Source: a virus
Lineage: Duplodnaviria > Heunggongvirae > Uroviricota > Caudoviricetes
Virus record (IMG/VR): IMGVR_UViG_2541047122_000023
Length of the DNA: 8,509 bases
Strand: one strand, 5' to 3'
Shown here: positions 1,577 to 2,060 of the stretch, piece after piece
Numbering within the stretch: position 1 is the first letter of the stretch
How the letters are laid out: every line of letters begins with the position of its first letter
The notes under the pieces: model-generated
The model's input: the letters and a program-made list of their open reading frames with translations, nothing else
Told to the model about the DNA's origin: nothing
Databases searched by the model: none
Program-made: the position numbers and the translations under genes

Positions 1577-1891
1577 TTAAACACCTAACGCCCGACGCCC
1601 CAGCGCCATTGCTGCTTTTATTGTGGAACCGAATCCCATAAAGAAATCAGCAACCAGATCACCAGGTCGACTACTGGCATTGATTATTTGCCTGAGCATA
1701 TCCGCCGGTTTCTCGCACGGATGTTTACCCGGGTAGAACTGAACGGGCTTATGCGTCCTGACATCGGTATAAGGCACGGAGACTGATACGGAGAAATAGC
1801 GCCGGTGAGATTTAAACTCATCCAGCAATTCAGAAGATTTGCAATTCAGTGAATCATGAGATACCACCAACTGGTGGTAGGATTGTCTCAA
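1577..1891 (-). pseudogene. Remnant of a DNA N6/N4 methyltransferase gene (C-terminal catalytic-domain fragment only)
   Basis: Translation contains ...KPVQFYPGKHPCEKPADMLRQIINASSRPGDLVADFFMGFGSTIKAAMALGRRALGV, matching the conserved C-terminal HPxxKP ... DPFxGSGTT ... GRxxIG block of N6_N4 methyltransferases. There is no upstream DPPY-type motif; the frame begins at a TTG right after an in-frame TAG (1892-1894) with no ATG, and the protein ends abruptly after GRRALGV. Homology stops exactly where the AT-rich insert begins. Confidence 0.55.
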
Positions 1892-2060
1892 CTAGTGAGC
1901 TTTATACATTTAAGTGCGATGCACAGATAATAACCACGCCAATGGAATATCACACACAAAATTGATAGAACACTAACAATAAGCCACAAAATAATTCACA
2001 ATTTATTTTTACAGTGGATAAGTAGCAAAGTAGTGAATGTGAATAACGGCTAACTAAGAT

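Follow-up and report, generated by a model that had tools for sequence, protein, structure and literature searches.

A 3' remnant of an M.EcoGII-family methyltransferase gene beside a two-gene cassette in a lambdoid prophage of Escherichia coli O157:H7

We conclude, with a probability of about 0.93, that the short reading frame lying between the antiterminator Q gene and the lysis genes of this prophage is a pseudogene, the non-functional remnant of a beta-class adenine methyltransferase gene of the M.EcoGII family, left by a replacement that brought in a two-gene module. Features that argue for the pseudogene call include homology to only part of a gene at a locus that is intact in relatives and a disabling lesion that is polymorphic among the truncated copies; nothing found in the analysis contradicts it. 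In kind, this is an ordinary pseudogene of a characterised family, already known and annotated so in public genomes, where RefSeq gives 1577-1891 the pseudogene label 'DNA methyltransferase, incomplete, missing N-terminus', both in O157:H7 and in other E. coli.

The window, by which we mean the whole stretch of 8,509 nt that was analysed, comes from a lambdoid prophage of E. coli O157:H7, of which it covers the early-right and late-left part: positions 1400-2100 are 100% identical to dozens of complete O157:H7 genomes, and strain FRIK944 (L001) matches window 1-8216 at 99.8% identity. The minus strand carries all the phage genes considered here. Their order in the direction of transcription is a Dam-type methyltransferase gene (6581-7267; Pfam PF05869, E 5e-45), genes for LexA-like, RusA, KilA-N and DUF968 (4046-5041) proteins, and the Q gene (3280-4032; Pfam PF03589, E 8e-53), which served as upstream landmark; then come an AT-rich stretch with two ORFs, the 1577-1891 ORF, the lambda-family holin gene (1105-1440; Pfam PF05106, E 6e-27, and RefSeq annotation) as downstream landmark, the endolysin gene and Rz/Rz1. 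The Dam-type gene is the second methyltransferase gene of the prophage, has kept an intact reading frame and presumably encodes a site-specific enzyme.

At the far end of the window (8217-8509) lies the end of an IS3-family element (IS1203/IS629-like), with its terminal sequence TGAACCGCCCCGGG beginning at 8217 and the C-terminus of its transposase at 8258-8464 on the minus strand. This element breaks a prophage replication/helix-turn-helix gene and is absent from FRIK944; among complete E. coli genomes, none contains the IS junction (8120-8320) at 100% identity and one contains it at 97.5%.

The methyltransferase remnant and its intact relatives

The first-pass annotation had described a frame that opens with TTG right after an in-frame TAG at 1892-1894 and that carries only the C-terminal block of a methyltransferase, and both observations held. 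The ORF (1577-1891, minus strand) encodes 104 aa, starts with TTG directly downstream of that TAG, and matches the Pfam profile N6_N4_Mtase (PF01555, E 7.3e-18) at profile positions 156-209 of 221 only, with the matched part lying around the HPxxKP stretch and SAM-binding motif I; the strings HPCEKP, DFFMGFGST and GRRALGV are all present in it. At the DNA level, the remnant is longer than the ORF, spanning 1517-1886 (minus strand) and corresponding to codons ~228-350 plus the stop codon of an intact 350-aa gene. Homology with intact genes continues past the ORF stop to the ancestral stop at 1517-1519, just 3' of which there is a terminator-like hairpin (1493-1509, minus strand) that is kept in intact loci, followed by the holin gene.

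In tblastn searches, the intact protein matched the window through residues 227-350 at 1891-1520 (E about 1e-70), while residues 1-226 of two intact proteins were found in none of the six frames of the 8.5-kb window, where the next matches had E >2; a chance match is excluded because residues 227-350 match at E 1e-70 and nothing else does. The same searches bear on the idea that the gene was only frameshifted or rearranged, with its N-terminal part surviving close by in a different frame or on the opposite strand, an outcome that the first-pass annotation had named as one that would undo its reading. We found no point in favor of it: the six-frame searches return residues 227-350 only, and the DNA upstream of 1887 is homologous instead to the cassette of phages without the methyltransferase. 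A frameshift instead of a deletion was ruled out on the six-frame searches with the two intact proteins, and we give it a probability next to nil.

The intact relatives indicate what has been lost. In phage mEp460 (L004), an intact gene of 1053 bp (350 aa) lies between Q and the holin gene, after the same DUF968-Q module as in the window, and E. coli WP7-S17-ESBL-04 (L002) has a 350-aa copy between a different Q and the holin gene, the latter as in the window. These two loci bear out the proposal that a methyltransferase gene originally lay between Q and the lysis genes. By blastn, the remnant DNA is 97% identical to the L002 copy and 92% identical to the mEp460 copy, with both matches starting at window position 1886; the match between L002 and the window extends over 487 nt at 97% identity, with 13/13 mismatches inside the methyltransferase part, and the best intact E. 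coli copies in general are about 97% identical to the remnant. When the 104 aa were searched by tblastn against phage genomes, full coverage at ~88.5% identity was obtained in mEp460, cdtI, SfV, Ayreon and others, cdtI and SfV being known here only as matches to these C-terminal 104 aa. All intact relatives that we examined are about 350 aa long. The ancestral state is common: 1155 of 5426 complete E. coli genomes (about 21%) have at least 80% of the intact gene.

The locus of mEp460 resembles that of the window in having the gene in the same slot, preceded by the same DUF968 and Q genes (window 5318-3148 is 96.5% identical at the DNA level), and the L002 locus in sharing the 3' end of the gene, the terminator and the start of the holin gene. 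Unlike the window, the intact loci have two small ORFs and the full gene in place of a GNAT-fold/61-aa cassette and the stub.

The closest characterised enzyme is M.EcoGII, a prophage-encoded and sequence-non-specific adenine methyltransferase of E. coli O104:H4 (PMC5778455), which together with M.EcoGI (Murray et al. 2018, PMC5778455) belongs to the N6-adenine, beta-class, PF01555 enzymes. Identity to M.EcoGII is 81% over 349 residues for the mEp460 protein and 70% over M.EcoGII residues 227-330 for the remnant, both values being based on a M.EcoGII sequence from a machine-read PDF (Table S1 of PMC11551740) that probably contains small reading errors. Like M.EcoGII, the mEp460 protein has the same length and the same order of motifs, with DPPY in the N-terminal part, the target-recognition domain in the center and FxGxG in the C-terminal part. 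Among intact proteins, which start with MKNTVKIN and continue to LIVTDPPYFKV, the catalytic motif IV DPPY is found near the N-terminus, in agreement with the expectation that the intact ancestor would have a DPPY-containing N-terminus; it is absent from every frame of the window.

In M.EcoGII, the Rossmann catalytic domain comprises residues 1-134 and 260-349, with the target-recognition domain at 160-237 and the dimer interface at 97-140 (PMC11551740). Since the remnant starts at about residue 227, it is missing the target-recognition domain (~160-237) and the dimer interface (97-140), and of the M.EcoGII domain segments it keeps only the last. The window copy thus differs from M.EcoGII in lacking residues 1-226, in having phenylalanine for serine in motif I and in ending at a premature stop; rather than a complete ~350-aa frame with a translation start, the 104-aa ORF has a TTG and a premature TAA. 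Judged from its sequence, the window copy cannot be an active enzyme.

The cassette and its junctions

The first-pass annotation had placed the start of the frame exactly at the edge of an AT-rich cassette, and proposed that insertion of this cassette had deleted the 5' part of the gene. The shift in base composition is real (39% G+C in 1887-3147 vs. 48% in the remnant), but the breakpoint, which alignment to intact genes located at 1879-1890, lies 2-15 nt inside the boundary. Megablast matches to hundreds of intact genes all stop at window 1878; identity is solid up to that position, becomes patchy at 1879-1890 (7 of 12 positions), and blastn reaches 1886, so that megablast, blastn and base-by-base comparison together define a right junction zone between cassette and remnant at about 1879-1891. 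Toward Q, the window and mEp460 are homologous over window 5318-3148 (96.5%); the match then breaks off and picks up again at 1886. Relative to mEp460, 1261 bp have come in (3147-1887) and 1835 bp have gone out (L004 2171-4005), the latter containing two small ORFs (gp51 and gp52) and the first 683 nt of the methyltransferase gene. Deletion of the 5' two-thirds of the gene is therefore borne out by tblastn, but as part of a replacement, 1261 bp for 1835 bp, and not of a plain insertion.

The left junction is located directly after the T-run of a terminator-like hairpin downstream of Q (3151-3174), which ends a segment common to the window and mEp460 (3148-3279, minus strand) that probably contains the late-promoter region; this terminator is kept in both parental types. 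The hairpin 3151-3174 is also conserved in phages with quite different Q genes.

Between the two junctions (1887-3147, minus strand), the cassette comprises a 180-aa gene (2526-3068, minus strand), a 61-aa gene (2149-2334, minus strand) and a 258-bp spacer (1887-2144), for which no source was found among the sequences searched. Within the spacer there is a terminator-like hairpin (2066-2094); upstream of the 180-aa gene lies a promoter-like site, TTGAAA-18 nt-TAGAAT (3125-3096), most of which is kept in one contig with a diverged cassette (L023). Both signals are consensus matches only. The 180-aa protein had no match in Pfam, NCBIfam or PADLOC, and matched only families of 'unknown function' in PHROGs. 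Its family is small (28 clusters), with named members only in Cronobacter, Proteus, Pragia and Jinshanibacter, and is restricted to enterobacterial phages. An AlphaFold2 model built with 27 sequences had a mean pLDDT of 87, and the top 50 PDB matches found by Foldseek were, by their entry descriptions, nearly all GNAT-superfamily N-acetyltransferases (E about 1e-6, TM about 0.5). On the strength of this model, we are confident in predicting a GNAT acetyltransferase fold for the 180-aa protein.

The 180-aa gene is always paired with the 61-aa gene, and the pair is always found directly 3' of Q or a Q-like gene in enterobacterial phages. Among IMG/VR contigs, four others carry diverged versions of both cassette genes (72-91% aa identity), including L023 (3974-4920), L025 (3992-4922) and L026 (1882-2819). 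The gene upstream of the pair in these contigs is another Q or Q-like one, ~36% identical to the window Q in L023-L025 and without a match to it in L026. The holin gene comes next after the cassette in L025 and L023. No methyltransferase match was found in the flanks examined of the four contigs, and homology of the window DNA to them covers 3173-2145, starting inside the terminator hairpin. A peptide-pattern scan of GTDB species-representative genomes gave no relative of the cassette. In L026, a metagenomic phage contig, 58-aa and 138-aa ORFs lie between the cassette and the holin gene (3027-3661), which we take, from their sequences, to be a HicA/HicB-like toxin-antitoxin pair.

In E. coli, the 1261-bp cassette is present in 98 of 5426 genomes and in one deposited phage (vB_EcoM-689R6); in the 98 genomes it is always full length, at least 99.4% identical and always abutting a methyltransferase annotation, and a junction query was covered by the same 98 records as the cassette. 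Among 13 IMG/VR contigs with an identical 180-aa gene, the methyltransferase match begins at residue 227 in 12, and at residue 244 in L011. Taken together, these data suggest that all carriers descend from a single event.

A single junction common to all carriers might also be produced if a discrete mobile element (an IS, a transposon or an integron-like cassette) had inserted with an adjacent deletion and no module swap between phages had taken place, an idea with which the sharp G+C shift (39% vs. 48%) and the compactness of the unit, with its promoter-like and terminator-like sites, would agree. However, we found no terminal inverted repeats and no direct repeats or target duplications at 1887 or 3147, and there is no transposase or integrase in the cassette, the sole ORFs of which are the 180-aa and 61-aa genes; a transposon-type insertion was rejected on these grounds. 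In addition, unrelated phages have the cassette at the same place after Q, the left junction at a terminator conserved in both parental types suggests a homology-guided exchange, two further mEp460-type ORFs are missing as well, and the 1261 bp are absent outside this context among the 5426 E. coli genomes. We consider an inserted element very unlikely, and the term 'insertion scar' used in the first-pass annotation is loose for a cassette without transposon hallmarks.

The simplest reading of the locus is a module exchange between two lambdoid phages. Many lambdoid phages carry this methyltransferase gene between Q and the holin gene, as part of the late operon. We postulate that, in the ancestor prophage, the DNA from just after the Q-downstream terminator to codon ~227 was swapped for the two-gene module, which other enterobacterial phages have at the same place after Q. 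The left crossover probably took place at the terminator common to both parental phage types, with the right crossover presumably being illegitimate and falling inside the methyltransferase gene.

In its location directly after the Q-dependent late promoter and terminator and in its atypical G+C content, the cassette resembles the morons and other cargo carried 3' of Q in lambdoid phages, such as the stx genes and the tRNA and toxin cargo of phage SerU-LTIIb; its own promoter-like and terminator-like signals are known from consensus matches only. It differs from them in that its cargo consists of an uncharacterised GNAT-fold protein and a 61-aa protein, and in that it was no simple addition to the genome, since a resident gene lost part of its sequence when it arrived. 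The pair could functionally replace the methyltransferase, be a moron with no relation to it, or act like a toxin and its antitoxin.

Decay of the stub

The first-pass annotation had suspected further 3' decay behind the abrupt end after GRRALGV, and this proved correct. The premature TAA at 1577-1579 (minus strand) differs by one G-to-T change from GAA, the codon for Glu331 of the intact protein, and downstream of it 19 codons and the ancestral stop remain, identical to L002. Strains 1409 (L005) and Ec-050-T20-MAC (L006) have the same 5' junction with GAA kept, and their copies are annotated as 375-nt pseudogenes. The exact 57-mer with the TAA is found in 82 E. coli records; if these are a subset of the 98, roughly 82/98 carriers would have the nonsense lesion. 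From this distribution, truncation would have come first and the nonsense mutation later. A natural short form ending at GRRALGV was rejected, the stop being a single-base change and the sister truncated copies reading to the ancestral stop; no form of ~100 aa ending at this point occurs in any relative examined.

The stub has also accumulated amino-acid changes. At 1631-1633 (minus strand), a TCC-to-TTC change replaces Ser with Phe, turning FMGSGST of motif I into FMGFGST; FMGSGST is present in M.EcoGII, in all its reconstructed ancestors and in intact relatives, and the altered F-M-G-F-G still matches FxGxG though the usual serine is phenylalanine. Over 121 codons, the window differs from the closest intact gene by 9 non-synonymous and 2 synonymous changes (pN/pS 1.4), vs. 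4 non-synonymous and 10 synonymous changes between two intact genes over the same codons (pN/pS 0.13); by Fisher test of 9:2 vs. 4:10, p = 0.015, with small counts of 11 and 14 changes. These ratios, small as the counts are, indicate that the stub is probably under relaxed selection.

Near the junction, the non-synonymous changes are H to Y, A to V, Y to H, R to C and Y to S; further in come L to H and W to R, and the S to F in FMGSGST and the stop complete the list. Six of the 11 changes are in the first 45 nt after the junction (1835-1879), five of them being amino-acid changes, and are common to all truncated copies. No intact allele with the junction-proximal substitutions was found, an exact 41-mer scan of IMG/VR having given only cassette-bearing contigs. 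These substitutions could have been inherited from an unsampled parental allele, introduced by repair at the junction or acquired by drift.

Whether the 104-aa ORF could be a genuine short gene, for example one whose product, a SAM-binding fragment, would modulate the M.EcoGII-like enzymes made by other prophages in the same host, has to be weighed against this pattern of change. The FxGxG pattern and the HPCEKP motif can still be read in it, its late-operon position means that it would be transcribed on induction, and PHROG 6952, a 181-position profile, is made up of fragments from the C-terminal part of methyltransferases, which shows that pieces of this kind are annotated in phage genomes. 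This proposal is nevertheless highly improbable in view of the following: 1) the ORF has neither an ATG start nor a ribosome-binding site, with no Shine-Dalgarno-like motif found upstream of any of its in-frame start codons; 2) pN/pS is about 1.4 and the nonsense mutation arose within the lineage; 3) the dimer interface of M.EcoGII (97-140, PMC11551740) is missing; 4) the conserved serine of motif I is now phenylalanine; and 5) every intact relative examined is about 350 aa long. The absent ribosome-binding site suggests that the stub is not translated.

On the reading that we prefer, a pseudogene left by module replacement, the stub would have drifted after the exchange, first acquiring amino-acid changes that include the Ser to Phe and later, in most carriers, the GAA-to-TAA change. 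Because the late promoter region lies upstream of it and the lysis genes downstream, we presume that it is transcribed passively with the Q-dependent late transcript, without function. In L006 (2348-3005), the shared cassette and 5' junction are followed by an mEp460-like 3' part of the stub and by essD/rrrD lysis genes, not lambda S/R, which points to recombination within or just after the stub. This mosaic therefore suggests that the role remaining to the stub is that of a homology stretch through which lysis modules are exchanged.

N-terminally truncated stubs of this gene recur. In E. coli PCP06173 (L038, 3478-3990), a 219-nt stub of the same methyltransferase gene adjoins the same holin gene; like the stub in the window, it is a 3' stub beside the lambda-family holin gene with the same kind of annotation, but it has another breakpoint, and the gene it abuts, which lies on the opposite strand, is a truncated HD-hydrolase gene. 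The different breakpoint and neighbor therefore mark an independent event.

What the replacement means for the prophage

The stub itself matters little; what biology remains to be explored at this locus lies in the displacing cassette alone. One could imagine that the phage traded a late-expressed, promiscuous anti-restriction methyltransferase of the M.EcoGII type for a GNAT-fold and 61-aa module serving counter-defence or host takeover in the same expression slot. We regard such a trade as unlikely; if true, the stub would mark a functional exchange between two anti-defence strategies and the swap would not have been neutral.

For methylome analysis and restriction-modification prediction in O157:H7, the 104-aa ORF should not count as a methyltransferase. 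Prophages of this type have lost the M.EcoGII-like enzyme and kept the intact Dam-type gene (6581-7267). The locus is a clean case, resolved in full, of cargo exchange between Q and the lysis genes in lambdoid prophages and of the decay of the gene stubs that such exchange leaves behind.
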